The notes under the pieces were generated by a model. That model worked only from the letters and a program-made list of their open reading frames with translations, was not told the DNA's origin and ran no database searches. Positions 3,423-59,821 of a DNA stretch of 64,000 nt are shown here, in pieces (the stretch's first letter is position 1; each line of letters opens with the position of its first letter). The stretch comes from Candidatus Falkowbacteria bacterium (GTDB taxonomy: Bacteria > Patescibacteriota > Patescibacteriia > UBA11705 > JABHMO01), in assembly GCA_018674305.1 (NCBI GenBank), contig JABHAL010000010.1, positions 25,708 to 89,707 on the forward strand, written 5' to 3'. The translations under genes and the position numbers were made by a program.

Positions 3423-3468
3423 ATTTGATATTTTTTAGTAGGTATTGGTTATTGGGTATTAGAAATTT

Positions 3469-3569
3469 TACTCGTTACTGTTCTCGTCCCGCATAGCGGG
3501 ATCCCGTTTGCGGGAGATTTAACATACTTAGTATTGCTTCTCTGCGTAGCGGAGTCCGCTATGCGGACG
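3469..3569. repeat. REPIN-like composite palindromic repeat (copy 1)
   Basis: The arms cccgcATAgcggg and tcccgTTTGcggga, a central agcggAGTccgct, and overall left-arm/right-arm inverted complementarity (cgtcccgcatagcggga ... gtccgctatgcggacg). About 95% identical to the copy at 4281-4380. Confidence 0.7.
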
Positions 3570-3580
3570 TGATTCATAGA

Positions 3581-4222
3581 CTATTCTACTTTTTTAAATC
3601 TATTATTAAAAGATTGTACATCTTCATTAAAAATATCATTATTTACCTTTATTTCAAAATCAAATACCCACAAAACATGAGCTATTCCAGATTGAATAGT
3701 AAAACCAACAATTTTTACCGGCCGAGCCCTGTCTGACTTCTCTATAAAATTATCACCAATCGAGTGTTCGTATAAATCTCTACTAGCTAACAACTTTGCT
3801 TCTCCAAATTGAAGAGTTTTAACGCTACGACTTGATTCCTTTAGCACAAAGCCTATGGGAGTTGTATGTTTTCCTATTGTCTCAGATAAAAACTCAACAT
3901 TATTCCCATCAATGCTTTCAACTGTACCCTTTTCAAATGTTTTACGTCCATAGGATGGAAACATGTAAACAATATCACCAATTTTTATTTTTATTTTCTT
4001 TGTTTCAATAAACTCAACAATCTCCTCTTTCTTGGCGATATAATCGCGCATAACTTGAAGTGCTTCTTTGTCACCGGCTTCAGCTTTCTCTTTCAGTTCA
4101 GCAAATCCAAGCCCACCTGAGATTTCTTCCAACTCAGACATTAATTTATCAAAATGCGCTTGCTGAACTTCGGTGAAGTTAGCTTTGAGTGAATTTTCAG
4201 TTAGTTGTTCTATGCTTTTCAT
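3581..4222 (-). CDS. Paralog-family protein P2
   Basis: 213 aa. Same N-terminal domain (about 93-96% nucleotide identity to P1 over the first ~230 nt of the CDS) with a different C-terminus. Confidence 0.7.
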   Translation of the reverse strand: MKSIEQLTENSLKANFTEVQQAHFDKLMSELEEISGGLGFAELKEKAEAGDKEALQVMRDYIAKKEEIVEFIETKKIKIKIGDIVYMFPSYGRKTFEKGTVESIDGNNVEFLSETIGKHTTPIGFVLKESSRSVKTLQFGEAKLLASRDLYEHSIGDNFIEKSDRARPVKIVGFTIQSGIAHVLWVFDFEIKVNNDIFNEDVQSFNNRFKKVE

Positions 4223-4253
4223 GAGGATTAACTATTGGTTATTGTGTATTGGT

Positions 4254-4277
4254 TATTGGGTATTGGGTATTGGGTAT
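4254..4277. repeat. Tandem heptamer repeat (TATTGGG)x3 on the plus strand, CCCAATA on the coding strand, immediately upstream of the P2 start
   Basis: tattgggtattgggtattgggtatttt. Related degenerate copies occur at 3441-3463, 56563-56590 and 57358-57393, each just upstream of a minus-strand start codon. Confidence 0.6.
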
Positions 4278-4280
4278 TTT

Positions 4281-4380
4281 ATTCGTTATTGTTCTCGTCC
4301 CGCATAGCGGGATCCCGTTTGCGGGAGATTTAACATACTTAGTATTGCTTCTCCGCGTAGCGGAGTCCGCTGTGCGGACA
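4281..4380. repeat. REPIN-like composite palindromic repeat (copy 2)
   Basis: Near-identical to 3469-3569, including the same small hairpins. Confidence 0.7.
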
Positions 4381-4390
4381 AATTTCATAA

Positions 4391-5155
4391 TTATTCATTG
4401 TCTTTTTCTAATACTTCAAAATATTCTGCAACCTTGTCAGTGTTTACCATAATCATCTTTGCAAATGGAAGGCCTTGACCAACGTTAAACATAATTTTTA
4501 CCAATATTTCAAAACCACTCTTTTGTATTTGATCTCCTCGCGGAACTGCAAATCTTTCTATTTCAACATCTTTCACGTCAATGGCCTCAATATGCCAAGG
4601 TAACTCTGGGCAGAACTCTTTAGCCATCGATTGATCAAGAAACTTTAATTTTTGCCCGACCCACAATCCATAATATTTATTTCTTTCAAACACCTCTACA
4701 AAACCTACATTTTCTACATTTATCTCATTTCCTGAAGTTTTAAAAAGCTGATCTTTGTTAACAGGGAGACTAAATCCTTCTTTCTCACCTTCCAATTTAA
4801 TATGAATTATATCAACGACGTCTGAATCTTTCCGAATGATTTCACATTTTTGCCAGACACTGTCCCTATAAATCTGGGCCTGGTCACCAGGGTGTAATTC
4901 AACTTCTTCAAATTTTCCACCCGGAAATTCCTTCTTCTCAATAAACTCAACTATCTGCTCTTTCTTGGCGATGTAATCACGCATTACTTGTAGTGCTTCT
5001 CGATCACCGTCCTCAGCTTTTTCTTTCAGTTCAGCAAAACCAAGTCCACCTGAAACTTGTTCTAACTCAGACATTAATTTATCAAAACGCGCTTGCTGAA
5101 CTTCGTCGAAGTTAGCTTTCAAAGATTTTGATTGTAGTTCAGAGTCGAAATTCAT
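4391..5155 (-). CDS. Paralog-family protein P3
   Basis: 254 aa. The N-terminus MNFDSELQSKSLKANFDEVQQARFDKLMSELEQVSGGLGFAELKEKAEDGDREALQVMRDYIAKKEQIVEFIEKK matches the family; the C-terminus is unique. Confidence 0.7.
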   Translation of the reverse strand: MNFDSELQSKSLKANFDEVQQARFDKLMSELEQVSGGLGFAELKEKAEDGDREALQVMRDYIAKKEQIVEFIEKKEFPGGKFEEVELHPGDQAQIYRDSVWQKCEIIRKDSDVVDIIHIKLEGEKEGFSLPVNKDQLFKTSGNEINVENVGFVEVFERNKYYGLWVGQKLKFLDQSMAKEFCPELPWHIEAIDVKDVEIERFAVPRGDQIQKSGFEILVKIMFNVGQGLPFAKMIMVNTDKVAEYFEVLEKDNE

Positions 5156-5161
5156 AATAAA

Positions 5162-5899
5162 TTATTTTTTTATAGCTTTTTTCAGTTTCTCAATATCATA
5201 AGAGCAAGCAAAACTCAGTGATCCTCCAGTAACAGTATTGAAATCAAAATGAACGAGAGCTAAAAGCTTATCTGGCAGACTACTATTAAAAAAAACTCTT
5301 AAAATTTTTGCGGTTTTAAGTTCATGCTTCTCAAAATCCTTCCTTACACCCTTATCCAAAACGCCCTGAATATCAAAATCATTAGGATCTATCTGGTATT
5401 TTTGAAGTAATTTTAATCCGAAAATCGACTTCACATCAAAATTATAAACAATATCGCCAACTGACATTTCTTCAGTTTTTTGAACTTTTATCAAGTCTTT
5501 TTTTAAAATCCACGGCTCCGCTACCCCGTTAACCCCTGTTCTTATTTTAATCAAATTACCGTTAGCTTCAATATCAATAACTGGACAAATCTTACCATGA
5601 TGACCAGCCCCTGGTTTCCAAAACATAACTTTGTCAAGCACTTCAATATCACATTCCCATGTTATTGGCACCTCCTTATTTTCAATAAACTCAACAACCT
5701 CCTCTTTCTTGACGATATAATTGCGCATAACTTGCAAGGCATCTTTATCACCGCCCTCAGCTTTCTCTTTCAGTTCAGCAAAACCAAGTCCACCTGAAAC
5801 TTGTTCTAACTCAGACATTAGTTTATCAAAATGTCGCTGTTGGCGTTCATCAAAGTTTGCTTTGAGAGATTTCTCTTGTAATTGTTCTAGAGTTTTCAT
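5162..5899 (-). CDS. Paralog-family protein P4
   Basis: 245 aa. Family N-terminus with a unique C-terminus. It lies 6 bp upstream of P3. Confidence 0.7.
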   Translation of the reverse strand: MKTLEQLQEKSLKANFDERQQRHFDKLMSELEQVSGGLGFAELKEKAEGGDKDALQVMRNYIVKKEEVVEFIENKEVPITWECDIEVLDKVMFWKPGAGHHGKICPVIDIEANGNLIKIRTGVNGVAEPWILKKDLIKVQKTEEMSVGDIVYNFDVKSIFGLKLLQKYQIDPNDFDIQGVLDKGVRKDFEKHELKTAKILRVFFNSSLPDKLLALVHFDFNTVTGGSLSFACSYDIEKLKKAIKK

Positions 5900-6762: not shown

Positions 6763-7479
6763 TTATTTTAACTTCGCAACCGTCACTATATTTAAACCTC
6801 GTAACCACGAGCTCTTCTTTCCTGGCCGATCCGGATCATTCTTCGCGCTGTAATAGTTTTTGGTCACTGTAAATCCGTTTTTCTGAAGTAATCTTTTAAT
6901 TCTTCCTTTTGTAAATGCGTAATAATAGAGTGGAACGTCGACGCCTGTGGTTTTCCAATGAGTTGTAACTCCACGCTCACCAAAAAGAATCATGGCCAGC
7001 GAAACATTTTTCCAGATTGATTTTAAATTATCTCGATTCCAAAGATTCCAGTTTACCATCAACAGTTTTCCACCCGGTTTCAACAATCTTTTCACATTTT
7101 CTATGACAGACTGTTGATTATCCTTTGGAAAATGGTTCAAAGAAGAAACCATGAAGATAACGTCAAATTTCTTAATACCCAATTCACAATCCCCAATATC
7201 CAATACATCACAAACTTCAAATTTCTGATCAGGATATGATTTTTGTGCCTGTTTAATCAACCCTTCACTATTATCAATACCTAAATAACTTATACTTTCA
7301 CCTTTTACCTGTAAACTTTCCACTAGCCGCCCATTTCCACAACCCAAATCAAGAATGTTATCGCCATCCTTGATATTTTTTGCCAAAAAGGAAATATCAC
7401 CCCAAACATAACCACGAGTGCTAGAAAATAATTCCGCAATCTTATTGTAACTTTGCTTATTTTGTTCGATTAGATCCAT
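6763..7479 (-). CDS. Class I SAM-dependent methyltransferase
   Basis: 238 aa. Motif I ILDLGCGNGR and a post-I acidic residue pattern. Confidence 0.75.
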   Translation of the reverse strand: MDLIEQNKQSYNKIAELFSSTRGYVWGDISFLAKNIKDGDNILDLGCGNGRLVESLQVKGESISYLGIDNSEGLIKQAQKSYPDQKFEVCDVLDIGDCELGIKKFDVIFMVSSLNHFPKDNQQSVIENVKRLLKPGGKLLMVNWNLWNRDNLKSIWKNVSLAMILFGERGVTTHWKTTGVDVPLYYYAFTKGRIKRLLQKNGFTVTKNYYSAKNDPDRPGKKSSWLRGLNIVTVAKLK

Positions 7480-9157: not shown

Positions 9158-10750
9158 ATGAATATTCACAAACAACTAGTTTTGAAACTAGCTGGCTTGA
9201 AGGTAAAAAATTCTAATCGCCTAAACAAAGTCAAACGCCAGTTTGCCAACAAACACAAGATCGGCATGATAAGCAATGCCGAACTTTTGTATTTATATCG
9301 ACAAATGCTCAAGAAAAAAGCGCTACCTCACAATGAAGACCTAGAAAAATTATTACAAAAAAGAAAAATCCGCACATTGTCAGGTGTAGCCCCTGTTGCA
9401 GTTTTGACAAAACCATACCCCTGCCCAGGAAAATGTGCCTACTGTCCAGACGAAAAATTAATGCCCAAAAGCTACCTATCAAATGAACCGGCAGTTATGA
9501 GGGCAATTTTAACTAAGTTTGATCCGTTTACCCAAGTAAATGTACGAATTCGCGCACTAACTGACAATGGCCACCTGACCGATAAAATTGAATTAATCAT
9601 TATGGGTGGCACCTGGTCATACTTTCCTAAACAATATCAAAGTTGGTTTATAAAAAGATGTTTTGATGCTTGTAATGGAAAAACTGCCAAGAATATAGAA
9701 CAAGCTCACAAGTGGAACGAAAACGCCAAACATCGTATTGTTGCTCTAACTATAGAAACAAGACCTGATTATGTTTCCCAAAAAGAAATTGCCTACTGGC
9801 GAAAACTTGGAGCAACCAAAGTAGAACTTGGTGTACAATCGCTTAATGATAAAGTTTTGCATTTAAATAAAAGAGGTCACTATATCAAGGAAGTAGCTGA
9901 AGCTACAAAATTATTCAAAATGGCTGGTTTCAAAGTGGCCTACCACATGATGCCGAATTTGCCAGGCTCAACCACTGCTAAGGATTTAAAAGATTTTAAA
10001 ACTCTTTTCGGAGACGAAGGATTTCAGCCGGACTTGATTAAAATTTACCCAACGGTTGTAACAAAGAACTCCCTACTTTTTCGTTGGTGGAAACAAGGCA
10101 AATACAAACCTTATTCAGCAAAAAAATTATTCGATTTACTTATCAAAATAAAGTTGTTAGTACCAGCCTATGTAAGAATCATCCGTTTAATTAGAGACAT
10201 TCCACTTGAAAGCATTGAAGCTGGCAATCCTATTTCCAACCTAAGACAAGATCTACAAAAGGAGTTACATAAGCAAGGTAAATTCTGTAAATGTATTCGT
10301 TGTCGCGAAGCGCGTGAAGATTTACAAGGATTAGACAAAGCAAAGCTATCCAAAATTCACTACCAGGCACCTGATGCTGATGAATATTTTTATCAACTAA
10401 CAAATTATAATAAAAAGAAGTTATTTGCATTCCTTCGTTTAAGATTACCACACAAAGACGAGCAAAACTTTATTCCAGAACTTCAAGATTGTGCTATGAT
10501 TCGCGAAATTCACACTTACGGTCGTTTAACTCCCTTAGAAAAAGAAAAAAAGAAAAAGAACATTCAACATTCAGGACTTGGAACAAAACTAACACTGGAA
10601 GCTGAAGAGTTTGCTAAGAAAAAAGGCTTCGCTAAAATGGCCGTGATTTCTGGCGTAGGCGTACGCGGTTTTTACAAAAAACTTGGCTATAAGCAAGTTG
10701 GGACATATATGATTAAAGATTTAAGTTGTAAGACTAAAACAAAGAAATAA
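9158..10750 (+). CDS. Elp3-like radical SAM/GNAT protein (putative tRNA uridine(34) acetyltransferase)
   Basis: 530 aa. CPGKCAYCP is a Cx3CxxC radical-SAM cluster motif, and the C-terminal GNAT region is HSGLGTKLTLEAEEFAKKKGFAKMAVISGVGVRGFYKKLGY. The domain order is that of Elp3. Confidence 0.75.
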   Translation: MNIHKQLVLKLAGLKVKNSNRLNKVKRQFANKHKIGMISNAELLYLYRQMLKKKALPHNEDLEKLLQKRKIRTLSGVAPVAVLTKPYPCPGKCAYCPDEKLMPKSYLSNEPAVMRAILTKFDPFTQVNVRIRALTDNGHLTDKIELIIMGGTWSYFPKQYQSWFIKRCFDACNGKTAKNIEQAHKWNENAKHRIVALTIETRPDYVSQKEIAYWRKLGATKVELGVQSLNDKVLHLNKRGHYIKEVAEATKLFKMAGFKVAYHMMPNLPGSTTAKDLKDFKTLFGDEGFQPDLIKIYPTVVTKNSLLFRWWKQGKYKPYSAKKLFDLLIKIKLLVPAYVRIIRLIRDIPLESIEAGNPISNLRQDLQKELHKQGKFCKCIRCREAREDLQGLDKAKLSKIHYQAPDADEYFYQLTNYNKKKLFAFLRLRLPHKDEQNFIPELQDCAMIREIHTYGRLTPLEKEKKKKNIQHSGLGTKLTLEAEEFAKKKGFAKMAVISGVGVRGFYKKLGYKQVGTYMIKDLSCKTKTKK

Positions 10751-10898
10751 AAACACCGAAACCCTTTCCTGAATTTAATCCACTCAAAATAAAGTACCTT
10801 CAATTAATATACATTAACCTCGACTAGTCTTGGCAAAAACACCAATTTAGTATAAAATAAACTTACTTAAATATCACAACTTTAACCTAAAATCTAAC

Positions 10899-17640: not shown

Positions 17641-18243
17641 ATGCGTTATCCTGAAACTATCAACAACCTAATCGAATCCTTTTCTCGCCTACCGGGAATT
17701 GGACGCAAAACTGCTGAGCGGTTTGTTTTTTATTTACTAAAGAGACCTGGTGCTGAAATTGAAAAATTTGCCAAAAACCTGTATGAACTGCAAAAACACA
17801 ACTTTACTTGTCCAGATTGTTTTAATTTTTCCGAAAACCAAGGATTATGTTCAATTTGTTCTGATTCAACCAGAAACCAAAATACAATTTGTGTAATTGA
17901 AGAATTCCATGATCTAAATGTTATTGAAGCTACAGGTGAATATAAGGGACTATATCACGTACTTGGTGGCAAAATAGACCCCCCTGAAGGCATCACTCCG
18001 GACAAACTAAAAATAAAGGAGTTATTGAGGAGAATACAACAAAACAATATTCAAGAAATTATTCTAGCCTTGAATCCAGACATTCAGGGTGAAGGAACTA
18101 TTATTTACTTAAAAAACATTCTTAAACCTCTAAACATAAAATTAACTCTACTCGCACGAGGACTTCCAATGGGATCTGACATTGAATATGCGGATGAAAT
18201 TACATTGAGTAATGCTCTGAAAGGGCGACAAGAATTAAAATAA
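17641..18243 (+). CDS. recR: Recombination protein RecR
   Basis: The RecR N-terminal MRYPETINNLIESFSRLPGIGRKTAERF, a C4 zinc finger CPDC...CSIC, and a Toprim region. The track ORF starts earlier (17566) and overlaps ybaB; the MRYP start is preferred. Confidence 0.88.
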   Translation: MRYPETINNLIESFSRLPGIGRKTAERFVFYLLKRPGAEIEKFAKNLYELQKHNFTCPDCFNFSENQGLCSICSDSTRNQNTICVIEEFHDLNVIEATGEYKGLYHVLGGKIDPPEGITPDKLKIKELLRRIQQNNIQEIILALNPDIQGEGTIIYLKNILKPLNIKLTLLARGLPMGSDIEYADEITLSNALKGRQELK

Positions 18244-27972: not shown

Positions 27973-28515
27973 CTATTTATCTTCGATAACACGTACCATT
28001 GCCGGCGGAGTGGCCAGCTGAAGTGGCTGATCGCACAGCATGTACGTCCCGCTCCACTCTAGGTAAACATCATCCGTAGTAAAGAAGAAAACCGCGTCAC
28101 CATTGGTTCCGTACGAACCATCGAGCTGCGGGCTTTCCACAACCTTACCACCAACACGTCTACGTGCAAAAGGATCATCGACAATCTGTTCACCAGTAGT
28201 TAACTTGGAGTTAACACTGGAGACCTTACCCTTGATAGTATGAAAGGCCATCACCTTACCATAGCTAACCAGGTAAATGTAGCTGATCTTGTTCGGATCA
28301 TTGAAACGGTTAAGCCGCTTTGACAGGTTATCTCGCTCCAAAGAACTCTCGATCTTGGGCGGCGGCGTGGCCTTGATCAGACGACCCTGCTGCTCTTCCG
28401 TGAAATTGGCCTCTGCCTTCTGGGTCTCACCCTGGCCCTCGTAGGACTCATCATCACAACCAACAAAGGCAGTGAACGCGAAAACACACGCAATTGCCAG
28501 CATAATTTTCTTCAT
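27973..28515 (-). CDS. Lipoprotein paralog 1 (unknown family)
   Basis: 180 aa with signal and lipobox AFTAFVGC. Conserved core LIKATPPPKIESSLER...ISYIYLVSYGKVMAFHTIKGKV...VESPQLDGSYG...PLQLATPP. Local GC is about 50-55%. Confidence 0.7.
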   Translation of the reverse strand: MKKIMLAIACVFAFTAFVGCDDESYEGQGETQKAEANFTEEQQGRLIKATPPPKIESSLERDNLSKRLNRFNDPNKISYIYLVSYGKVMAFHTIKGKVSSVNSKLTTGEQIVDDPFARRRVGGKVVESPQLDGSYGTNGDAVFFFTTDDVYLEWSGTYMLCDQPLQLATPPAMVRVIEDK

Positions 28516-29102
28516 TTCGACACCTCCTCGTCGCTCGTATCAGTCTTGGGATTATCCTCAATAATGCGAACCATCTCCGGAGGAGTAGACAGCTGAAGTG
28601 GTTGGTCGCTCAGCATGTATGCACCGTTCCACTCCAAGTAAATATCGTCCGTGGTGAAGAAGAAAACCGCATCGCCATTAGTTCCATATGAACCATCGAG
28701 CTGCGGGCTTTCTACTACCTTACCAGACCTGCCCTCATGATGAGCAAAAGGATCCTTCACGATCTGCTCACCAGTAGTCAACTTTGAATTAACACTAGAA
28801 ACCTTTCCCTTGATTGCATGAAAGGCCATGACCTTACCAAAATCGACCAAGTAGATATAACTGATCTTGTTGGGATCATTGAAACGAACAAGACGCTTGG
28901 CCAAATTCTCACGCTCCAAAGAGCTCTCGATCTTGGGCGGTGGGGTGGACTTGATCAGACGACCCTGCTGCGCTTCCGTGATCTTAGCTTCTTCCTTCTG
29001 GGTCTCACCCTGGCCCTCATAAGTTTGCTTTTCCGTCTTGCAGCCAACAAAGGCAAACGCCAGAATCAAGCTAAACAAAACCAACGTCTTTCCAGTCCTC
29101 AT
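28512..29102 (-). CDS. Lipoprotein paralog 2
   Basis: 196 aa with lipobox AFAFVGC and ribosome-binding site GAGGAGG. It is about 70% identical to paralog 1, and its stop overlaps the paralog 1 start (ATGA). Confidence 0.7.
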   Translation of the reverse strand: MRTGKTLVLFSLILAFAFVGCKTEKQTYEGQGETQKEEAKITEAQQGRLIKSTPPPKIESSLERENLAKRLVRFNDPNKISYIYLVDFGKVMAFHAIKGKVSSVNSKLTTGEQIVKDPFAHHEGRSGKVVESPQLDGSYGTNGDAVFFFTTDDIYLEWNGAYMLSDQPLQLSTPPEMVRIIEDNPKTDTSDEEVSK

Positions 29103-29226
29103 CGCAACCTCCTCAAGGTTATTAAGATGAATACACTAACAGATAGTGTAAACATCCTATAATATCACATATGAAATACTTTGTCAATAGCGACTGTAAT
29201 TTTACCACAAAGTCGCCCCTTTGAGA

Positions 29227-29263
29227 TAAAAAAACAGAGCCTGGTTAGAGAACCAAGGCTCTG
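29227..29263 (-). terminator. Rho-independent terminator after lipoprotein 3 (duplicate of the 27924-27961 module)
   Basis: Same hairpin and A-run. About 60 bp including the gene 3' end is duplicated (aaaaaacagagcctggttagagaaccaaggctctgtYgtgttattactaYttgtcttcgat). Confidence 0.7.
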
Positions 29264-29274
29264 TCGTGTTATTA

Positions 29275-29817
29275 CTACTTGTCTTCGATCATCCGGACCA
29301 TGGCCGGTGGCGTAGACAGTTGCAGTGGCTCAGTAAGCCACATGTAATCACCTCGCCACTGGACCAATACTTCTTCTGTAGTCCAGAAGAAGATCGCGTC
29401 TTCACTCGGACCATAGGATCCGTCCAATCCAGGACTTTCCATCGTATGTCGAGTTCGTCCAGCGCCAGTTGATCCATCGCCGACCTCGACAACCTGATCA
29501 CGCGTAGTCAACTTAGACGAACAATAAGTAACCTTGCCCTTCACCGTATGAAAGGCCATCACCTTGCCATAACTGATCAAGTAAATATAAGAGATTCGAT
29601 CTTCACGATTGATCTCCTTGAGATACTTCACCAGATTCTCCCGCTCTAGAGAATTTTTCATCTCCGGCGGAGGAGTCGACTTGAGTAACCGTTCCTGGTT
29701 CCTCTCTGTCATTTCCATCTCATCGATGGTAGTCTGGCCAGTATCCAGCGCCTTACCGCAACTGATCATACCCATAGCCAGAACACAGAGAGTAACAATC
29801 GTCATAAGCTTCTTCAT
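29275..29817 (-). CDS. Lipoprotein paralog 3 (diverged)
   Basis: 180 aa with lipobox GMISCG. It is about 45% identical to paralogs 1 and 2 and conserves the TPPPEM, ISYIYLISYGKVMAFHTVKGKV and PLQLSTPPAMVRMIEDK blocks. Confidence 0.7.
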   Translation of the reverse strand: MKKLMTIVTLCVLAMGMISCGKALDTGQTTIDEMEMTERNQERLLKSTPPPEMKNSLERENLVKYLKEINREDRISYIYLISYGKVMAFHTVKGKVTYCSSKLTTRDQVVEVGDGSTGAGRTRHTMESPGLDGSYGPSEDAIFFWTTEEVLVQWRGDYMWLTEPLQLSTPPAMVRMIEDK

Positions 29818-29826
29818 GTCAATCTC

Positions 29827-30342
29827 CTACTGGCCGGGGATAGTGAAATCTGCCGGATGCGTCGCCGGAAGATCATCAGTTTTGAACAGCTCACGGTTGG
29901 CCATTTCAGTTCGCGCATTGTACTTGGCCACCACGTCTCGCCGTTGATTCTGCAGACCCAGCACGATCGTGTTGAGTCGAGAATACTCGGTCTTGTCCTC
30001 GAACGTCCAATCCTTGCGCGGACCAGCGTCTTCCTTGAAGCGCTTGAGCGCCGCGTCAGAATTGACGATCTTGGACTCCAGCGACAGGATATCCTGATTC
30101 GTCTGCTTGAACCACTCGTAGTTCTGGATCACGTTGTCCGCGTCCAGAGTCTTCTCCATGATCTTCACAGCCTGCTCGCCGGGATAACACACCACCCGGA
30201 CAACCGTCCCGATGAGTCCCAACACAATCACAACTGCGAGGATCTTGAAGAACATACTCCAAGGTCCACCTTTGGCCAGGTTGTAGGCCGTGTTTTCGTA
30301 CTTTCGCCCAACATCATCCCATCGATCATCATTCCGTGTCAT
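29827..30342 (-). CDS. LemA-like membrane protein (low-confidence family assignment)
   Basis: Ribosome-binding site AAGGAGGTG before the internal ATG (MTRNDDR). One transmembrane helix (FFKILAVVIVLGLIGTVV) then a helical region with YNARTEMANRELFK, loosely LemA-like. The track ORF extends to 30369. Confidence 0.45.
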   Translation of the reverse strand: MTRNDDRWDDVGRKYENTAYNLAKGGPWSMFFKILAVVIVLGLIGTVVRVVCYPGEQAVKIMEKTLDADNVIQNYEWFKQTNQDILSLESKIVNSDAALKRFKEDAGPRKDWTFEDKTEYSRLNTIVLGLQNQRRDVVAKYNARTEMANRELFKTDDLPATHPADFTIPGQ

Positions 30343-30473
30343 CTCCACCTCCTTAAGGTTTAGACACAAAAATACTTCTATTCAGCAACACAGTTTTCAT
30401 AAGAGTATAGCATAAAGATTAAATACTGTCAACCCTATTACCTAAATTTACAACAGAAATACTATTTGAAACA

Positions 30474-32598: not shown

Positions 32599-33174
32599 TT
32601 ACGAGATTACAAGATTATTCCTGTCACGTTGCCATTTTTGGGGATTGCAACGAATATACCAACGAACTTGCTCTAATTCCTCCTGACTTCGAATTATCCG
32701 ATCGTAAAATCTCCCCTGCCAAAACCTTTCACCAACTGTCCCCCTTATTTTATTAATTTGTTTAGCTGACTGCATTTTAAATCGTCCAATCATTTTGGGC
32801 AATAACATATGGCGACGAATCATTCGACGACACGTTGTGTCGTCTGCATACATTCGTAGAGACAATTCATGAATTGTCTCTACATCACGGTCGTCGCCAT
32901 TAACAATTCTAATTATCCCATGAAAATGATTGGGCATAATTATATATTTATCTATTTCACATTGTGGATAATGCCGAAACGCATCTTGCCAACATTGCTC
33001 AACAATTTCACCAAAGTCATTTAGAAACATCTTTTCATTCCTAACTTTCCCTAGCCACTCAATCATATAAGATGTACACATCGTAACATAATAGAATCCA
33101 TCAGACGAATAATTCCAATACGGCAAACGTGTTGATTTAATTCTATACCTGTTTTTATATAATTCCTCACTCAT
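32599..33174 (-). CDS. IS200-like / REP-associated tyrosine (Y1, HUH) transposase
   Basis: 191 aa. HUH motif PNHFHGIIRI and a C-terminal tyrosine region RFWQGRFYDRII...YIRCNPQKW. It ends 5 bp upstream of the helicase start. Confidence 0.7.
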   Translation of the reverse strand: MSEELYKNRYRIKSTRLPYWNYSSDGFYYVTMCTSYMIEWLGKVRNEKMFLNDFGEIVEQCWQDAFRHYPQCEIDKYIIMPNHFHGIIRIVNGDDRDVETIHELSLRMYADDTTCRRMIRRHMLLPKMIGRFKMQSAKQINKIRGTVGERFWQGRFYDRIIRSQEELEQVRWYIRCNPQKWQRDRNNLVIS

Positions 33175-33802: not shown

Positions 33803-34351
33803 CTATCCGCGCTGACTAAATTCACAACCACAATAGTCCTGCCTGTGGAAATCTTCTTGCGAACTTAATTCACAAGATTTTTTGAAGCCTTCGTTCTTAC
33901 GCCAAATCGTATCAATGAATTTTAGATTATAAAACTCTGCGAACTCCTGGCCGATCTGATTTATCATTTCCGCGGGTTTATGTGGACTAATAGTTAAAGT
34001 TGAAGCAAACGCGTCAAAGCCATCCTCCATCGCTCGTTGCGCCACCTCACCAAGTCGATGCATAAAACATTTGCGACAGCGCTCACCCTTTTCTGGTTCA
34101 TTTTCCAAACCTTTAATTAACTCTAACCATTCATCATGTACGTATTTTCCTTCAATTAATTTAATCCCCAATTTTTCAGTGTAACGCTTAACCTCATCTA
34201 AACGTAGTTTATATTCCTCTTCTGGAAAAATATTTGGATTATAAAAATAAACAGAGACCTCATGTCCCTCTTTTTGCAATTCATTAATAACTTGCCCGCC
34301 GCACGGAGCACAGCAAGAATGGAGTAATATTTTCATAAGATCAAGGATCAA
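33803..34351 (-). CDS. queH: Epoxyqueuosine reductase QueH (DUF208)
   Basis: 182 aa. LLHSCCAPCGG with conserved Cys/His, ...ERCRKCFMHRL and the C-terminal CGCEFS are typical of QueH. Confidence 0.8.
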   Translation of the reverse strand: MILDLMKILLHSCCAPCGGQVINELQKEGHEVSVYFYNPNIFPEEEYKLRLDEVKRYTEKLGIKLIEGKYVHDEWLELIKGLENEPEKGERCRKCFMHRLGEVAQRAMEDGFDAFASTLTISPHKPAEMINQIGQEFAEFYNLKFIDTIWRKNEGFKKSCELSSQEDFHRQDYCGCEFSQRG

Positions 34352-34406
34352 GGGGCAAAGGTCAAAGAAGGATTAAAGCATAAAGATAAAAGAATAAAGA
34401 ATTACA

Positions 34407-34822: not shown

Positions 34823-35113
34823 TTATTCTTTACTCTTGGCTCTTTCTTTGCCCTTTACCCCTTGCTCTTTGCTCTTAATCCAAACCTGCTTAAAGATCTG
34901 CAACGTCAAAGTTGATAAGATAAAAGCCAACGCCGGCACAATTGAATTCATAAACGGTTTTGGTAAGCCGGCAAAATAAAAAAACACAACTATAACAACA
35001 TAGGTTAAAATCGCAATCACAATTTTCCGAAACCAACTGGTTTCCCATGCCTTGTCAGCTTCAACTCGGCGGTTACGTTTTTTGATTTGGATTATTTCCT
35101 TTTCCAGATCCAT
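34823..35113 (-). CDS. Small two-transmembrane-helix protein
   Basis: 96 aa with two hydrophobic helices. The C-terminal KGKERAKSKE is encoded by simple AAGG/CAAGG repeats. Confidence 0.5.
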   Translation of the reverse strand: MDLEKEIIQIKKRNRRVEADKAWETSWFRKIVIAILTYVVIVVFFYFAGLPKPFMNSIVPALAFILSTLTLQIFKQVWIKSKEQGVKGKERAKSKE

Positions 35114-35189
35114 AATTATATTTAATTCTTATTCCTGAACCCTAAAACCTTAAAGCTTCCCTAACTCTTGAACCTTGAATCCTAAACCT

Positions 35190-35570
35190 TTAATGCAGAT
35201 AGCTTTCCTTATAAAGCCAAGCGCTAAGGGTAGTTACAATTGTATAAATTGCTGCACCCAAAAAGCCGGCCCACCAAATAGTTATATCAAAGCCTTGGAT
35301 AAAGGTTGCTACAAACCAAAAGACTAAAGCATTAATCACCAAATTGGATAAACCCAAAGTGATAATGTTAATTGGAAAAGTTATCAACTTTAATATCATC
35401 CCCGGAACAAAATTAACCAAACCAATTACCACCACTAATATCATGGCGTAATAAAGGCTGGCCACTTCAATTCCCGGGATAAAATAACCTATGGCCAATA
35501 AACCAACTGCGTTTATAAGCCAACGAAGAATCATGTACATATTAAATAAATCAAGAAAACAAGAAATCAA
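35190..35570 (-). CDS. DUF360 / phage-holin-4_2-like membrane protein
   Basis: 126 aa with four predicted transmembrane helices. ILRWLINAVGLLAIGYFIPGIEV...GFLGAAIYTIV matches the YvlD/DUF360 pattern. Confidence 0.6.
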   Translation of the reverse strand: MISCFLDLFNMYMILRWLINAVGLLAIGYFIPGIEVASLYYAMILVVVIGLVNFVPGMILKLITFPINIITLGLSNLVINALVFWFVATFIQGFDITIWWAGFLGAAIYTIVTTLSAWLYKESYLH

Positions 35571-40716: not shown

Positions 40717-41376
40717 TTATTGTAAAATATAGAGATTAGTAATTGAAGAGAAAAAAATCGGCTTATTTTCATCCTCAATTTCTAAATATTCTCGAATACT
40801 AACTACATGGCCTTTAAGAACATGATAGCCATCAGCCATGAAAAACTCTCGACACAAATCATCAAAATCAACAAACGAATAATCAACTACCACTCTTTGA
40901 TGTCTGACGATTTCTAAATCAGATCGATGCATTGCACTAAAAGCTTGAATAATACCTTGCCTTTCTGAAATAAATAACTCAGCAAGCTGACACAAAACAT
41001 TATCCATGGCTGGTTCAATCACTAAGATTTTCCCCTCATCAGTCAACATTCTTCTTGCTTTGTGTAGTGCCTCTATCTTGCGATCTAATCCACCTTTAAA
41101 GTGATGTAAACAACTAGAAAAAACTACTGCATCAAAACTTTCGACCAATTCAACATCAAAGTAATCAGCTCGGATCATTTCAACTTGAGGAAATCTATCC
41201 TTGATTTCCTGATATCGGCGTTGGCGTAATTCGATGCCTGTTAACTGTGTATTCTCACATAGCAAAGCTTGCATCTCCCGGCCGGACCAACAGCCCACTT
41301 GTAAAATTTTCTTTCCGGCCGGCGAAACTAAACTCTGAATTACCTGAGCTTCCAGACTAGAAGGTGAAATTTTCAT
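40717..41376 (-). CDS. Class I SAM-dependent methyltransferase
   Basis: 219 aa with motif I ILQVGCWSGRE and the VVFSSCLHHF region. Confidence 0.7.
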   Translation of the reverse strand: MKISPSSLEAQVIQSLVSPAGKKILQVGCWSGREMQALLCENTQLTGIELRQRRYQEIKDRFPQVEMIRADYFDVELVESFDAVVFSSCLHHFKGGLDRKIEALHKARRMLTDEGKILVIEPAMDNVLCQLAELFISERQGIIQAFSAMHRSDLEIVRHQRVVVDYSFVDFDDLCREFFMADGYHVLKGHVVSIREYLEIEDENKPIFFSSITNLYILQ

Positions 41377-41456
41377 TAGTTACCTCATTTTTAATGGACA
41401 CTTCATTATAATTGAACTCCCAAAGTTTGTCAATGTAGAGACATTTTCACAATAGT

Positions 41457-41527
41457 CATTCCGGACTTGATCCGGAATCCCAGGTCTCCTTATAAAGATT
41501 TTTAAGACTCCGGATCAAGTCCGGAGT
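41457..41527. repeat. REPIN-like pair of inverted REP hairpins
   Basis: H1 cattccggacttgatccggaatc, and H2 ctccggatcaagtccggag whose core is the reverse complement of H1. The H1 25-mer recurs identically at 59525-59549 inside murI. Confidence 0.7.
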
Positions 41528-41599
41528 GACGCTTTGGGGTATATTAGATAAAACAAACAAAAACACCAACTCGAGTTGGCTTTAAATATGAGGATTCTA

Positions 41600-43642
<2,043 letters not shown>

Positions 43643-51561: not shown

Positions 51562-52374
51562 CTACAAACCTAGGTTTGTTAAATACCAAGCTAATAGTTG
51601 TTGTCCCCAAAATAAAGCTACAAAGGTGGAACCCGTCAGAAACACACCAAAAGGCACCGGGCTTTTCATAGTTTTTATTTTGAAAGCTAAAAGTATTACA
51701 CTAATCACAGCACCAGAAACATAAGCTAAAATTAGAGCCACAAAAATTATTGGCCAACCAAGCATAAATCCCATTACTGCGCCTAAACGAATATCACCAC
51801 CGCCAACCCATTTACCCTTGGAAACCCAATACTGCAGAGCAAAAAAACCACCACCAATCAGACCAGCTACTATCAAATTAATTAGAATTGAAAAGTAATT
51901 TCCTGAATGACTTAAAATAAAAAAGTTTACCAAAAAGGCAAACACCATTAACGGTATAGAAACTGCATCAAAAATTAAATAATACCGTAGGTCAGTTGTA
52001 AAAATAATAATTAATCCCGCCACAAAAACTAAATCTCGAAAGAACATAGGATTTGCCATAGCTTGACCCACTTGATGATGATAAGCTAAAAAAACAAACA
52101 GCAAACCCGTCACCAATTCAACACTTGGATATTGCCAAGAAATCTTCTGTTTACAACCACGACACTTAGCCTTTAACCAAATAAAACTAAAAATTGGAAC
52201 TAGATCATAGTTCTTTAATTTTTGGTGACAGTGAGGACAGTTCGACCGCTTTTTCCAGATTGATTTTTTTTCTGGCAAGCGATAAATCACCACATTTAAG
52301 AAGCTTCCAATACAAGCTCCAATTATGAAGATTAAAACGTAAGTTAACATAAATATATAAGTTCCAAGTTTCAA
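51562..52374 (-). CDS. Prepilin peptidase (A24 family, PilD-like)
   Basis: 270 aa with an N-terminal Cys tetrad CPHC...CRGC, a multi-pass membrane region, and a conserved Asp-containing segment GGGDIRLGA. Confidence 0.8.
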   Translation of the reverse strand: MKLGTYIFMLTYVLIFIIGACIGSFLNVVIYRLPEKKSIWKKRSNCPHCHQKLKNYDLVPIFSFIWLKAKCRGCKQKISWQYPSVELVTGLLFVFLAYHHQVGQAMANPMFFRDLVFVAGLIIIFTTDLRYYLIFDAVSIPLMVFAFLVNFFILSHSGNYFSILINLIVAGLIGGGFFALQYWVSKGKWVGGGDIRLGAVMGFMLGWPIIFVALILAYVSGAVISVILLAFKIKTMKSPVPFGVFLTGSTFVALFWGQQLLAWYLTNLGL

Positions 52375-52424
52375 GATCCAAGTACCAAGTTATCACTTGA
52401 AACTTGTTACTTGTCGCTTGTTAT

Positions 52425-53656: not shown

Positions 53657-54415
53657 TTAATCAAGTTGAAATTTTCTTATAAACACCTTAGCAATCTCAC
53701 TCTCTAAATTCTCAGCAAATTCTATTTGCACAAACTGATCAGAAACTGGAATAACAATAGCGGTACTATCTACATAATATTTAAATCCAATCTTGCCAGC
53801 AATAGAGATCAAAGAGGACTCTTCATCAGCGAAATTATTACTGTCCGTAACTGTAACAATAACGTCCCCGACATCCTCGGAATCATCTGGACGAATCTGG
53901 CCGTCAGCAAAAAAATGCACCTGTTTAACATATGGTCTATCAAAATAAGTCCAGGAATTTGGAAAATAAGTAGTCACTCCATACTTAGCAAAACTTAGCC
54001 AATCATCTTCAATCTCTAAAATATCTTCATCAAGTTCTGCCTCTAAATCATCTGCATCTATATTCCCACTCATCCAAGAAAAAGCCTCACTCGACTCTGA
54101 TGGTGTAAATGCACTAGTAAACTGCGCGGGAAGGATATCTTTCAGTGCCTCCTGGAATATCACTCTAGTAATTCTAGTTTCCATATACATGGCACCAAAC
54201 AAGACACCAAAAGCAATGAATACACAGAATATTAAAACTGTGATCATGATCGCAAGACCTTTGAAATAATGAACTTCAGTTTTCAATAATCGAATTCTAA
54301 TCTGATCATCTGTTAATTTTTGCTCTAACTGTTTTTTTGTTTTTTCTACTGGTTTCTTTTTTGTTGTTTTTGTTGTTTTTGTCGTTTTTTTTGTTTTTGC
54401 TGGCATAAAGTACAA
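53657..54415 (-). CDS. Hypothetical membrane-anchored protein with an N-terminal KTTK tandem repeat
   Basis: 252 aa. KTKKTTKTTKTTKKKP is encoded by simple-sequence DNA, followed by one transmembrane helix. Confidence 0.5.
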   Translation of the reverse strand: MYFMPAKTKKTTKTTKTTKKKPVEKTKKQLEQKLTDDQIRIRLLKTEVHYFKGLAIMITVLIFCVFIAFGVLFGAMYMETRITRVIFQEALKDILPAQFTSAFTPSESSEAFSWMSGNIDADDLEAELDEDILEIEDDWLSFAKYGVTTYFPNSWTYFDRPYVKQVHFFADGQIRPDDSEDVGDVIVTVTDSNNFADEESSLISIAGKIGFKYYVDSTAIVIPVSDQFVQIEFAENLESEIAKVFIRKFQLD

Positions 54416-56482: not shown

Positions 56483-56588
56483 AATTCATAATAAAACTTG
56501 TTTATTGTTTATTGTTTATGATTTAATTTTTATTAATTTATATTTATTGTTTATTTTATTGGGTATTTGGTATTTGTCACTGGTTATT

Positions 56589-57311
56589 CTAACTAATTTT
56601 ATCAAACCCTATCTTAAACGCGCTCAATGATAAACCAGCTACCTTACGCTTCCCAGATACATCAACAGCACTATGATATTCAAATAATACACATAACTTT
56701 TTGGGGTCTTCAGATAAATCCGTAAAAAAACCTATTACACGAGTTTTGTAATCACTATTTGATGACCTGGACTTAAATTCATCACCAACTTTATATCCTT
56801 TATATTCGTGTAGTTCTAATAAAACCTCCTTAATTTGACCAACATTTTCAGTGTTTTCATATTTGGATTCAACTGGTCCGGCAATTTTAATTAAACTAGC
56901 CATTTCAAAAGTATGCCATGAATTAAAAACATCTAGAAAAACCTTAGCAAGTAGTTTAACAGGTTCCACCGTCTCGATTCGTCCAGGTTGAAAATCTCCT
57001 TCTGGGGTCATAACGACTACCCGATCACCCTCCTTCATTTCTGTAATCTCCACAAATTCATTTTCTGGCGATATCTTCATCTCCTTGGTTTCAATAAACT
57101 CAACTATTTCCTCTTTTTTTGTAATGTAATCGCGCATCACTTGAAGCGCCTCTTTACTTCCAGCTTCGGCCTTTTCTTTCAAGTCAGCAAATCCAAATCC
57201 ACCTGAAATTACTTCTAACTCAGACATTATTTTATCAAAATGCGCTTGCTGAACTTCGTTGAAGTTAGCATGCAAGGATTTTTCGGTTAAAGATTGTTCG
57301 GGATTTAACAT
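56589..57311 (-). CDS. Paralog-family protein P5
   Basis: Family N-terminus SLTEKSLHANFNEVQQAHFDKIMSELEVISGGFGFADLKEKAEAGSKEALQVMRDYITKKEEIVEFIETKEMK. A start at M11 (MLNPEQ) is preferred by homology with P7; the track start is 57341. Confidence 0.65.
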   Translation of the reverse strand: MLNPEQSLTEKSLHANFNEVQQAHFDKIMSELEVISGGFGFADLKEKAEAGSKEALQVMRDYITKKEEIVEFIETKEMKISPENEFVEITEMKEGDRVVVMTPEGDFQPGRIETVEPVKLLAKVFLDVFNSWHTFEMASLIKIAGPVESKYENTENVGQIKEVLLELHEYKGYKVGDEFKSRSSNSDYKTRVIGFFTDLSEDPKKLCVLFEYHSAVDVSGKRKVAGLSLSAFKIGFDKIS

Positions 57312-57391
57312 AATTTTCAGTAAACGGTAAACGTTAAACAATAAACCTTTAATTACTTATTGGATATTAGGTATTGGGCATTTGATATTGG

Positions 57392-58117
57392 TTACTCCTT
57401 GGCGTTAGTATTTATTTTCTTGAAATTTCTAGAAAAATCAGCTATATACCAATGACCGACCTTCCTTTTTCCAGCCTTATCTAAATCATAATCTATAAAC
57501 TCACCTAAAATTTTTAACTTTCCGTGAACAAGCACAAATCCTATCAAACGATTTTTCCAGTTTTGGACCTTTGATTTAAACTCGTCACCAACTTTATACT
57601 GCTCAAACTCATGAAGCTCTAATAAAAGTTCTTTGTCATCAACCTCTTCCTCACCAACAACTGTGTATTTTTCACCAACTGGTCCGGCGATTTTAGCTAA
57701 CCTTGTTATCATATATCCACGAGTAACATCTTCCTCATCCATTTTAACGTTTACGCCCAGAAAAGCATCCGGACTTGAGCAGATTGTCCCTATTTGAAAT
57801 TGTCTTGCTCCATCTAAAATTAACACGCTGTCACCATTTTTAAGTTCTGTTATCTCCACAAATTCATTTTCTGGCGATATATTCATTTCCTTTGTTTCAA
57901 TAAACTCCACAATTTCTTCTTTCTTCGCGATGTAATCTCGCATCACCTGAAGAGCTTCCTTACTTCCAGCCTCAGCTTTTGCTTTTAGCTCAGCAAAGCC
58001 TAACCCACCTGAGATCACTTCTAACTCAGACATTAGTTTATCAAAATGAGCTTGCTGACTTTCATCAAAGTTTGCATGCAAAGATTTTTCGATTAAAGAT
58101 TGTTCTAGCTTAAACAT
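57392..58117 (-). CDS. Paralog-family protein P6
   Basis: 241 aa with the family N-terminus. Its C-terminus shares LAKIAGPVGEKY and LLELHEFEQYKVGDEFKSK with P5 and P7. Confidence 0.7.
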   Translation of the reverse strand: MFKLEQSLIEKSLHANFDESQQAHFDKLMSELEVISGGLGFAELKAKAEAGSKEALQVMRDYIAKKEEIVEFIETKEMNISPENEFVEITELKNGDSVLILDGARQFQIGTICSSPDAFLGVNVKMDEEDVTRGYMITRLAKIAGPVGEKYTVVGEEEVDDKELLLELHEFEQYKVGDEFKSKVQNWKNRLIGFVLVHGKLKILGEFIDYDLDKAGKRKVGHWYIADFSRNFKKINTNAKE

Positions 58118-58123
58118 AGTTAA

Positions 58124-58843
58124 TTATCTAATTTTTTTACACTTTAACAAAAAAGGTTCAGGCTCATTATAGTACACAAAATACTTCCCAGTCGCTTCAT
58201 CAACATTATCAATAGTTTCATATAACAATTTAACCACACCACGGTCCAAAACAAATGCAATCAATCGCACTTTATAGGGAGTATTTTTTACCGCAAACTC
58301 ATCACCAACCTTGAAATCTTCATATTGATGAGTTTCTAACAAAAGAACATCCAACTGTTCTTCAGTTGATACAGGGTTGCCATATTTAAGACCAAATGGA
58401 CCAGCTATTTTTGCTAATGTTAGCAATGGACACCTAGTAATTCTCATTCCATCAAAAGCTACTTTTGCCCTTTTACTATCACCAAAATCAAAAAAATCTT
58501 TTATTTCACCTATCTTTCCATGTCTCCATGAACCCTCCTGTAAAAACGTAACCGTATCATTAACTTTTATTTCAGTAATTTCTACAATCGGATTCGCCTC
58601 GAAATCTGGCATTTTCTTGGTTTCAATAAACTCAACTATCTGTTCTTTCTTGGCAATATAATCCCGCATCACCTGAAGAGCTTCCGTACTTCCAGCCTCA
58701 GCTTTTTCTTTTAGCTCAGCAAACCCTAATCCACCCGAGATTACTTCTAACTCAGACATTAATTTATCAAAATGCATCTGCTGAACTTCGGTGAAGTTAG
58801 CTTTGAGTGCGTTTTCTTGTAATTGTTGTTCTGGGTTAATCAT
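58124..58843 (-). CDS. Paralog-family protein P7
   Basis: 239 aa with the family N-terminus MINPEQQLQENALKANFTEVQQMHFDKLMSELEVISGGLGFAELKEKAEAGSTEALQVMRDYIAKKEQIVEFIETK. Confidence 0.7.
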   Translation of the reverse strand: MINPEQQLQENALKANFTEVQQMHFDKLMSELEVISGGLGFAELKEKAEAGSTEALQVMRDYIAKKEQIVEFIETKKMPDFEANPIVEITEIKVNDTVTFLQEGSWRHGKIGEIKDFFDFGDSKRAKVAFDGMRITRCPLLTLAKIAGPFGLKYGNPVSTEEQLDVLLLETHQYEDFKVGDEFAVKNTPYKVRLIAFVLDRGVVKLLYETIDNVDEATGKYFVYYNEPEPFLLKCKKIR

Positions 58844-58927: not shown

Positions 58928-59821
58928 TCATTCGCATGAGAGTATATTCGTATCAATCTTATGTAACTCAATTTTCTCACCAAAAAACTTATCTGCTGTT
59001 TCCTGAAAATTATCGCTTAGATCTGTCACTAAATATTTGGTTTGTGAATTTTTACTTAAATCATTATCAATTTCCGGATGCCTCTTTAAATAATCTTTTA
59101 AACTCTTGGCCACAATCTCACCAGGATTAGGAACCAAGCAATTCGGCCCCATTATTTGTTTAATTTGTTCTATTAATAATGGATAATGAGTACAAGCTAA
59201 AACTAAAACTTGAACCGCTTGCTCTCGCAATGGTTGAATATATTTTTCTAAAATAACTTTGGTTTCAGGTTCATTCATCCAGCCTTCCTCAATCAACGGC
59301 ACCAGCAATGGACAAGCTTGTTGAACTATATTGAGTTCATGAACCTTTGACCCTGAACCTTTACCCCTTCCTTGCCCCTGAATCCTGACTCCTTGACCCT
59401 TTAATTCTACCACATAAATGTTCGAATTAACAGTTCCTCGCGTGCCAATTATTCCAACTTTACTACAACCAAGCCCTGCCACATACTCTGCCATCGGCCG
59501 CACCACTCCCAGTATATTAAATTCGTCATTCCGGACTTGATCCGGAATCTCACGAACAAGGCCGGGTAGCCACTCTTGCTGCAATCGTCTCAACGCTTTC
59601 GCACTGGCAGTATTACAAGCAACTATAATTAATTTGCAACCATTTTTAAATAAATAATCACACGCCTTTCTGGTCAAACCAAAGATAGCCTCATCAGATC
59701 TATTTCCGTAAGGAACATGAAGTGTATCACCCAAATACATATAATCGTATTTCGGCAAACTACGTTTAATTTCTTTTAATACGGTTAATCCACCTAAACC
59801 GCTATCAAAGACACCAATCAT
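58928..59821 (-). CDS. murI: Glutamate racemase MurI, with two repeat-derived in-frame insertions
   Basis: GVFDSGLGGLTV, IVACNTASA, ACTHYP and the rest are MurI-like. ...LVREIPDQVRNDEF... is encoded by the REP-like 25-mer, and GQGVRIQGQGRGKGSGSKV by CAAGG-type simple repeats. Confidence 0.8.
   Translation of the reverse strand: MIGVFDSGLGGLTVLKEIKRSLPKYDYMYLGDTLHVPYGNRSDEAIFGLTRKACDYLFKNGCKLIIVACNTASAKALRRLQQEWLPGLVREIPDQVRNDEFNILGVVRPMAEYVAGLGCSKVGIIGTRGTVNSNIYVVELKGQGVRIQGQGRGKGSGSKVHELNIVQQACPLLVPLIEEGWMNEPETKVILEKYIQPLREQAVQVLVLACTHYPLLIEQIKQIMGPNCLVPNPGEIVAKSLKDYLKRHPEIDNDLSKNSQTKYLVTDLSDNFQETADKFFGEKIELHKIDTNILSCE

Follow-up and report, generated by a model that had tools for sequence, protein, structure and literature searches.

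The best described relatives of the repeat reported here are the CGTC-tagged REPs, a superfamily defined by Di Nocera, De Gregorio and Rocco (2013, BMC Genomics 14:522; PMC3733652). Its members carry a CGTC or TGTC tag (with CCTC allowed as a variant), an 8- to 9-bp stem with A and T as its first two positions, a loop of 4 to 5 nt, and a CCA tail. They are multicopy, mostly intergenic, frequently paired as inverted heterodimers, and without a dedicated transposase, and the 2013 study assigned no mobilizing enzyme to them. The superfamily takes in dRS3 of Neisseria as well as RPE-4 (CGTC-4) and RPE-6 (CGTC-1) of Rickettsia and was found in five phyla, mainly in Alphaproteobacteria. In-frame intragenic copies were also documented, with peptides in the supplement that read VIPAKAGI, DSRFRGND, and CHSRESGNP in R. 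conorii (PMC3733652).

Literature searches by DNA strings and by encoded peptides returned no match to the element described below, and a search of the paper library joining REP with CPR terms found none. The concept of the RPE as selfish DNA within protein-coding genes reportedly goes back to Ogata and coworkers in 2000. RPE-1 is far longer than the present unit, about 100 to 150 bp, and expression of an RPE-decorated protein has been shown in Rickettsia. Heterocystous cyanobacteria harbor another class of short repeat, the heptameric short tandemly repeated repetitive (STRR) sequences.

Here we analyze a hairpin repeat that lies both between genes and within murI. The window, by which we mean the whole 64,000-nt stretch of DNA, is unremarkable for a CPR chromosome in the genes it carries (murB, a Mur ligase, a glycosyltransferase of family 4 of the MraY type, a glmM-like gene, rpiB, an RseP-like gene, GAPDH, and pilin genes) and is syntenic with the contigs of relatives. 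The best explanation of the data as a whole, which we regard as very probable, is that the repeat is one CGTC-tagged REP unit in frame in a surface loop of murI, beside an independent 16-residue insert built of heptamers, and that both are tolerated passengers and not adaptations.

Three copies of a tagged hairpin at two loci

An earlier reading made from the sequence only had pointed to a 25-mer present identically at two distant places, and this was borne out: across the whole window, GTCATTCCGGACTTGATCCGGAATC is exact on the plus strand at 41455-41479 and 59525-59549, and shuffles give an expectation of 0.00 matches. A third, inverted copy at 41506-41530 on the minus strand has two mismatches to the 25-mer, and a 17-nt core, TCCGGACTTGATCCGGA, for which shuffles predict 0.04 matches, is exact at all three sites. 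Because both mismatches are compensatory, changing ATTCCGGA/TCCGGAAT to ACTCCGGA/TCCGGAGT, the 8-bp stem is kept in the inverted copy. With tag and tail included, the match between the copy in murI and its inverted intergenic counterpart extends to 27 nt (CGTCAyTCCGGACTTGATCCGGArTCT). The window total is three copies at two loci (Table 1); tagged hairpins numbered 0 to 3 in shuffles.

The unit consists of an 8-bp stem beginning with A-T and a 5-nt loop, preceded by an unpaired tetranucleotide, and it fits the CGTC-tagged REP family as a candidate member closest to CGTC-2, which has the same stem and loop lengths. Common to the published CGTC REPs (PMC3733652) and the present hairpin are the tag, the A-T stem start, the 5-nt loop, rare in-frame copies, and the lack of a flanking transposase; in the wider set of instances described below, a short tail that is mostly CCA, inverted dimers that are often heterodimers, and a mostly intergenic location are seen as well. 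The three window tails, CCC(A), CTT, and CTC, deviate from the consensus CCA. The present set further differs from the published one in its CPR/Patescibacteria host, its many more phyla, murI as the host gene, and the recurrent use of one loop. The unit is stop-free in four of six reading frames, yielding the peptides VIPDLIRNP, IPDQVRND, and HSGLDPES; these frames are, in this order, those of the three R. conorii peptides cited above. As with RPE-4 and RPE-6, the palindromes lie in frame in genes, are tolerated in surface regions, and use the same translation frames, whereas the stem and loop sequences and the host phylum are different.

Other classes of element were also considered. A MITE was rejected, since the unit of 27 nt is far below typical MITE size and lacks a flanking target-site duplication; by inspection, no direct repeats were seen flanking either the murI copy or the intergenic copies. 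A Pfam scan that took in about 50 of the 68 ORFs of the window revealed no insertion sequence with ends matching the hairpin, and Rfam gave no match at gathering thresholds anywhere in the window.

Table 1. Repeat units, inserts, and neighboring features in the 64,000-nt window
Feature	Position	Strand	Description
RayT-like HUH/Y1 gene	32599-33174	-	191 aa; just upstream of a UvrD-like helicase gene
Intergenic heptamer spacer	34339-34402	+	GATCAAG GATCAAG GGGCAAA GGTCAAA GAAGGAT ...; lag-7 autocorrelation 0.68
Intergenic spacer with AAGG-type repeats	35114-35192	-	7-nt period; lag-7 autocorrelation 0.56
Sigma-70 consensus	41405-41433	-	TTGACA-17-TATAAT, 12/12; upstream of methyltransferase gene 40717-41376 (-)
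Intergenic REP copy 1	41455-41479	+	Tag variant AGTC; tail CCCA
Spacer between the two inverted REP units	41480-41504	none	About 26 nt; tails facing inward, tags outward
Intergenic REP copy 2, inverted	41505-41531	-	CGTC tag; ACTCCGGA/TCCGGAGT stem with compensatory change; CT tail
Terminator-like hairpin with T-run	41565-41580	-	Directly past the stop of ligase-like ORF 41600-43639 (-); precedes the doublet in the direction of transcription
murI, glutamate racemase	58928-59821	-	297 aa, intact; ACNTA (C69) and CTHYP (C210) catalytic Cys motifs conserved
Second murI insert	59342-59389 (boundaries approximate)	-	About 16 aa, VRIQGQGRGKGSGSKV; heptamer units
REP unit inside murI	59524-59550	+	CGTC tag, ATTCCGGA stem, CTTGA loop, TCCGGAAT stem, CT tail; exact 25-mer and 27-nt match

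The murI copy lengthens a loop of a predicted glutamate racemase

By its Cys motifs and its modeled fold, the ORF at the second REP locus is a predicted glutamate racemase, MurI. It is assigned to PF01177 (precomputed) and matches PDB sequences down to an E value of 1e-38, and C69 and C210 are invariant in an alignment of 30 MurI. Mean pLDDT in the AlphaFold2 (AF2) model is 88.8, low values being confined to about residues 91 to 100 and 145 to 160, and Foldseek matched the model to B. anthracis MurI (2gzm) with a TM score of 0.90, normalized to target length, and an rmsd of 2.4 Å.

The translation contains ...LPGLVREIPDQVRNDEFNILGV..., in which the REP unit (tag of 4 nt, stem of 8, loop of 5, stem of 8, and tail of 2, or 27 nt) makes up nine codons. 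The minus-strand murI frame reads these as E91-IPDQVRN-D99 (EIPDQVRND), nine extra residues. In silico excision of AGATTCCGGATCAAGTCCGGAATGACG leaves ...LPGLVR-E-FN..., a 21-residue loop, and 21 residues is also the length of this loop (loop 1, from ACNTA to (I/V)LGV) in 56 of 71 more distant CPR MurI among the matches listed, against 30 in the window MurI. A second loop (loop 2) measures 18 residues in 45 of these 71, against 34 here. This baseline comes from a metagenome scan with a MurI alignment, which brought up relatives of 40 to 50% identity among the matches listed; a metagenome scan with the single window MurI protein found no relative. Both segments are gaps in alignments to solved MurI sequences from the PDB, and in the 30 aligned MurI the residues separating LQQEYLP from NILGV are hypervariable.

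The sequence-only reading had described the murI copy as an in-frame insertion after the ACNTA motif, encoding ...REIPDQVRNDE..., and had taken murI as a coding sequence invaded by repeats with its frame kept. The alignments agree, with both segments absent from PDB MurI and exceeding the modal CPR loop lengths, and the two inserts are lineage specific in a gene that is otherwise intact. The structure model that the reading had proposed keeps the MurI fold and loses confidence at the two inserts only; their surface position is suggested by pLDDT together with the alignment gaps. On the same basis, we infer that the variable loop which holds the REP unit, and which joins the active-site helix of ACNTA to the strand of NILGV, lies at the surface. 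In the model, the enzyme core of the predicted racemase is undisturbed, EIPDQVRND doing no more than lengthening the loop.

A protein 100% identical to the window MurI, annotated in Candidatus Falkowbacteria, is found on 25 contigs from several sources, which makes an assembly artifact unlikely. In close relatives, both loops are variable, with other inserts or the basal length. No empty-site allele was found among the three members of the 90% cluster of the window MurI, all three of which have the insert.

Immediately downstream of murI lies one of two tandem arrays (56589-58843, minus strand; the other at 2769-5899) that together comprise seven paralogous ORFs of about 215 to 255 aa. They form a repeat family, D1, with 65 to 84% DNA identity and without a Pfam match, and similar unannotated ORFs follow murI in contig L001. 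Another block, at 27973-30369 (minus strand), holds tandem paralogous ORFs of 180 to 196 aa (repeat families D2 to D4) and has a G+C content of 0.48, compared with about 0.36 in the rest of the window; Pfam gave no match for the one ORF of this block that was searched.

A second murI insert made of heptamers

The additional residues of loop 2 are encoded by heptamers, which read on the coding strand GGTCAAG GAGTCAG GATTCAG GGGCAAG GAAGGGG TAAAGGT TCAGGGT CAAAGGT. The base autocorrelation of this insert reaches 0.52 at lag 7 and 0.51 at lag 14 but 0.15 at lag 3, compared with 0.29 ± 0.06 in shuffles, and TRF reports periods of 14 and 25 at 59340-59394. A second insert encoded by simple repeats had been anticipated by the sequence-only reading; the lag-7 value and a loop of 34 residues against a modal 18 are in line with it. 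Within this insert, residues 151 to 159 of the AF2 model have a pLDDT below 50.

The same reading had placed one CAAGG/AAAGG-type repeat in both murI and the intergenic spacers. Periodicity and motif style are indeed common to them, as the murI repeats resemble the GGKCAAR-type simple repeats of nearby spacers, but there is no common element sequence. Local alignments of the second insert with the two spacers of Table 1 scored 22 and 19, with shuffle means of about 13. A single discrete element common to insert and spacers was thus ruled out, the likeness being one of short motifs, composition, and period.

The relative P0002 has the same second insert as the window MurI. GGKCAAR heptamer tracts are also present in P0005 and P0008, where they differ by 7 aa, or three heptamers, and in P0013, whose identity to P0005 is 91.6%, loop 2 has the basal 18 residues. 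Replication slippage is the probable origin of the second insert. Under such a mechanism, heptamers would expand by slippage, and in a coding frame only changes by multiples of three units would survive. Window and cyanobacterial STRR repeats are alike in that heptamers in tandem fill intergenic spacers and undergo slippage-type changes in copy number. They differ in phylum and in the heptamers themselves, and here a tract lies inside an enzyme-coding sequence, where the length difference between relatives (P0008 versus P0005) is a multiple of three units. Coding microsatellites in general are a further parallel.

Tandem repeats with a 7-nt period were found by TRF in many window spacers, each with its own heptamer (for example, 4233-4291, 7174-7206, 34339-34402, 34834-34876, 35114-35192, 52359-52391, 54358-54399, and 56498-56576). 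The ORF at 34823-35113 (minus strand, 96 aa) has a C-terminal tail from AAGG-type heptamers at about 34826-34880, with a lag-7 autocorrelation of 0.60, and would be another case of a spacer-type repeat read as protein.

The intergenic doublet and a RayT-like gene

The two intergenic units can fold as two separate hairpins or as one long hairpin, the long form having a free energy of -49.6 kcal/mol (z = -9.3). With a terminator-like hairpin on one side and a perfect promoter consensus on the other (Table 1), the doublet occupies the gap between two transcription units. The ORF at 41600-43639 is called ligase-like, as a putative DNA ligase, from a reading of its translation.

The sequence-only reading had called this arrangement a REPIN. 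The inverted copy is there, but REPIN implies the GTAG-tagged class mobilized by a single-copy RAYT, and the tag here is CGTC. If the doublet were a REPIN, it and the murI copy could have been mobilized in trans by a RayT-like HUH/Y1 transposase encoded in the same window. A candidate gene is present: its product matches Pfam Y1_Tnp at an E value of 1.9e-6, carries the HUH motif PNHFHG and the tyrosine motif YIRCNP, has TnpA-REP (4er8) as its best PDB match, and has homologues named RayT by JGI. The inverted doublet, able to fold into one long hairpin, and the presence of a RayT-family gene in the window are what the locus has in common with REPIN/RAYT systems. However, the hairpins are tagged (C/A)GTC and not GTAG as are RAYT substrates (PMC3733652), and GTAG was not found at either end of the window copies. 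Nor do the flanks of the RayT-like gene hold a CGTC hairpin, the REP loci being 8 kb and 26 kb away. A RayT HMM run against about 0.9 Mb around 120 listed CGTC REP loci gave one weak match only, and RayT homologues in contigs L211 to L213 have no CGTC hairpins within 10 kb on either side but GTAG...CTAC palindromes instead, with matching extragenic copies in L212. Mobilization in trans by this transposase is accordingly very improbable, and the RayT-like gene is probably not responsible for moving the murI-type REP.

The RayT-like gene has a palindrome of its own. At 32856-32883 it contains, in frame, a perfect 28-nt palindrome, GTAGAGACAATTCATGAATTGTCTCTAC, which encodes the family-conserved VETIHELSL. 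The palindrome is identical at 28 of 28 nucleotides in homologues whose protein identity is no more than about 50% (L211, 10313-10340; L213, 10310-10337). At the same position in RayT of L212 there is a different GTAG...CTAC palindrome (10310-10337), with near-identical copies outside the gene at 10736-10763 and 17892-17919. To judge by these matches, the 28-nt palindrome looks like a GTAG REP embedded in its own RAYT gene and conserved at the nucleic acid level.

The hairpin recurs across bacterial phyla

A scan for AYTCCGGNCTTGANCCGGART in one genome per species returned at least 120 loci, with about 17 expected by our estimate under uniform base composition. The loci listed span Patescibacteria, Dehalococcoidia (Chloroflexota), Bacteroidota, Nitrospirota, all proteobacterial classes, Rickettsiales, Spirochaetes, Armatimonadota, and others, so that a near-identical hairpin, (Y)GTC-ATTCCGGn-CTTGA-nCCGGAAT-CCA, is spread over at least 120 species-level genomes, far past the five phyla of 2013. 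Among the matches listed, 137 instances could be compared, of which 60 have CGTC and 58 have TGTC as the tag; the tail is CCA in 91, CTA in 16, and CTC in 12; and in 126 the variable pair at the top of the stem is complementary. In 46 of these instances, from the 120 loci listed, there is a GAC-tagged partner in inverted orientation, usually of a different stem, no more than 130 nt away. Most copies at these loci are intergenic.

The exact 25-mer of the window is found in 39 of 120 unrelated loci among the matches listed. Since the same 25-mer occurs in dozens of unrelated phyla, the identity of the two window copies reflects a family consensus and dates nothing. Bare identity is also all that speaks for coincidence, or for copying in the reverse direction, from an ancestral murI coding segment to the intergenic site. 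No chance matches are expected, and the element is absent from most MurI while being a mostly intergenic repeat in dozens of phyla; the probability that either account is correct is negligible. That the hairpin is so nearly identical across bacteria hints that some constraint or function is at work which the term "selfish DNA" would by itself leave unexplained.

Further in-frame copies, with Pfam domains intact on both sides, were found in a UvrD/PcrA helicase, a MiaB-like enzyme, a radical-SAM enzyme of Nitrospirota, and an HrpB helicase. The UvrD/PcrA helicase, from Moraniibacteria, uses the same EIPDQVRND frame, and its copy is part of a dimer. This gene (L122, 833-4228, plus strand) holds an intein (Hint/Intein_splicing) as well as the in-frame REP heterodimer HPELVSKSNE-EIPDQVRND. 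CGTC hairpins also occur in tandem: an Armatimonadota MAG has five of them spaced 47 nt apart from start to start (L078, 5496-5704), and a Treponema MAG has an array with a period of 36 nt (L121, 2359-2415).

Turnover at the MurI loops

The protein loops of the best 120 MurI relatives show many different inserts at one place. In five lineages (the window, P0002, P0004, P0008, and P0028), a (C/T)GTC tag lies 5 to 6 nt from a conserved Asn codon. P0014 has a clean ATTCCGGC-TCAAG-GCCGGAAT hairpin in another frame, and P0018 has nested duplicates at the loop. P0013 and P0014, which are 87.6% identical, have homologous flanks with swapped 27-nt cores. Together with the loop 2 differences described above, these patterns indicate that both MurI loops are insertion hot spots with rapid turnover.

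At loop 1, the window, P0002, and P0004 have element ends in common, AGA[TC]T[TC]C ... CG[GA]A[AG]TGAC, at the same site but with different interiors. P0002 MurI is 87.6% identical to that of the window outside the loops, and its loop peptide is completely different. A stable hairpin in P0002 was not supported, as its loop has no significant fold (z = +0.55); homology of the P0002 element rests on the shared ends and a 5-bp covarying stem. A loop-masked neighbor-joining tree of this single short protein gave ((window,P0002),P0004). From the shared ends, the different interiors, and the tree, the interior of the P0002/P0004 type looks ancestral and the window REP a later replacement. We infer, on a one-gene tree and short motifs, that the consensus REP in the window lineage replaced an older tagged element.

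This turnover bears on whether the insert could have been exapted, either as an RNA structure in murI mRNA acting in pausing, stability, or processing, or as a 9-residue loop with a role in the protein. On the murI mRNA strand, the hairpin with its flanks is stable (-16.9 kcal/mol, z = -4.4), its stem is kept by compensatory changes both between the window copies and across the 126 of 137 listed instances, and its sequence is extremely conserved across phyla. Stem conservation, though, is a trait of the repeat family everywhere, intergenic copies included; the peptide is wholly different in the nearest relative, P0002; and rapid replacement and loss at the site among MurI that are 88 to 92% identical argue against a conserved role in murI. 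Exaptation is thus very improbable, and a tolerated passenger is the reading we retain.

A stronger version of the hot-spot reading is tentative and rather doubtful: in the MurI of this CPR clade, the loop from ACNTA to NILGV may serve as a genuine site of homing, into which CGTC-type hairpins have been repeatedly inserted, nested, and exchanged like cassettes, as the same-site tags, the swapped cores, and the replaced element might suggest. Were it so, CGTC REPs would be currently active in Patescibacteria and would target preexisting REP remnants, and near-isogenic alleles from before and after an event could reveal how the hairpin family is mobilized.

Implications

In the mechanism that we propose, both inserts would be DNA of selfish or slippage origin, able to persist by being in frame, free of stops, and placed in tolerant loops. 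The REP site would be a hot spot that already held an older tagged element before the window lineage split from its nearest relatives; in the window lineage, this element would have been replaced by the consensus REP, through either conversion from another copy or reinsertion. CGTC-type REPs in frame in coding sequence are known, the Rickettsia RPEs being examples, so the present case is not a new kind of element; what is new is the CPR host and murI as the gene.

With these observations, selfish palindromes of the Rickettsia type within protein-coding genes are now seen in the Candidate Phyla Radiation, and in the gene of a cell wall enzyme, and heptamer microsatellites constitute a second route from noncoding repeat DNA to protein sequence. 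Inserts of this kind inflate the apparent novelty of proteins in CPR genomes and can mislead alignment, domain annotation, and structure prediction. Two aspects deserve specialist attention, namely, that one MurI loop is used recurrently and turns over, and that the hairpin is nearly identical across bacteria. The exact hairpin is common to dozens of phyla, with no known transposase of its own, and the MurI hot spot provides a natural allelic series from which its target rules might be read.
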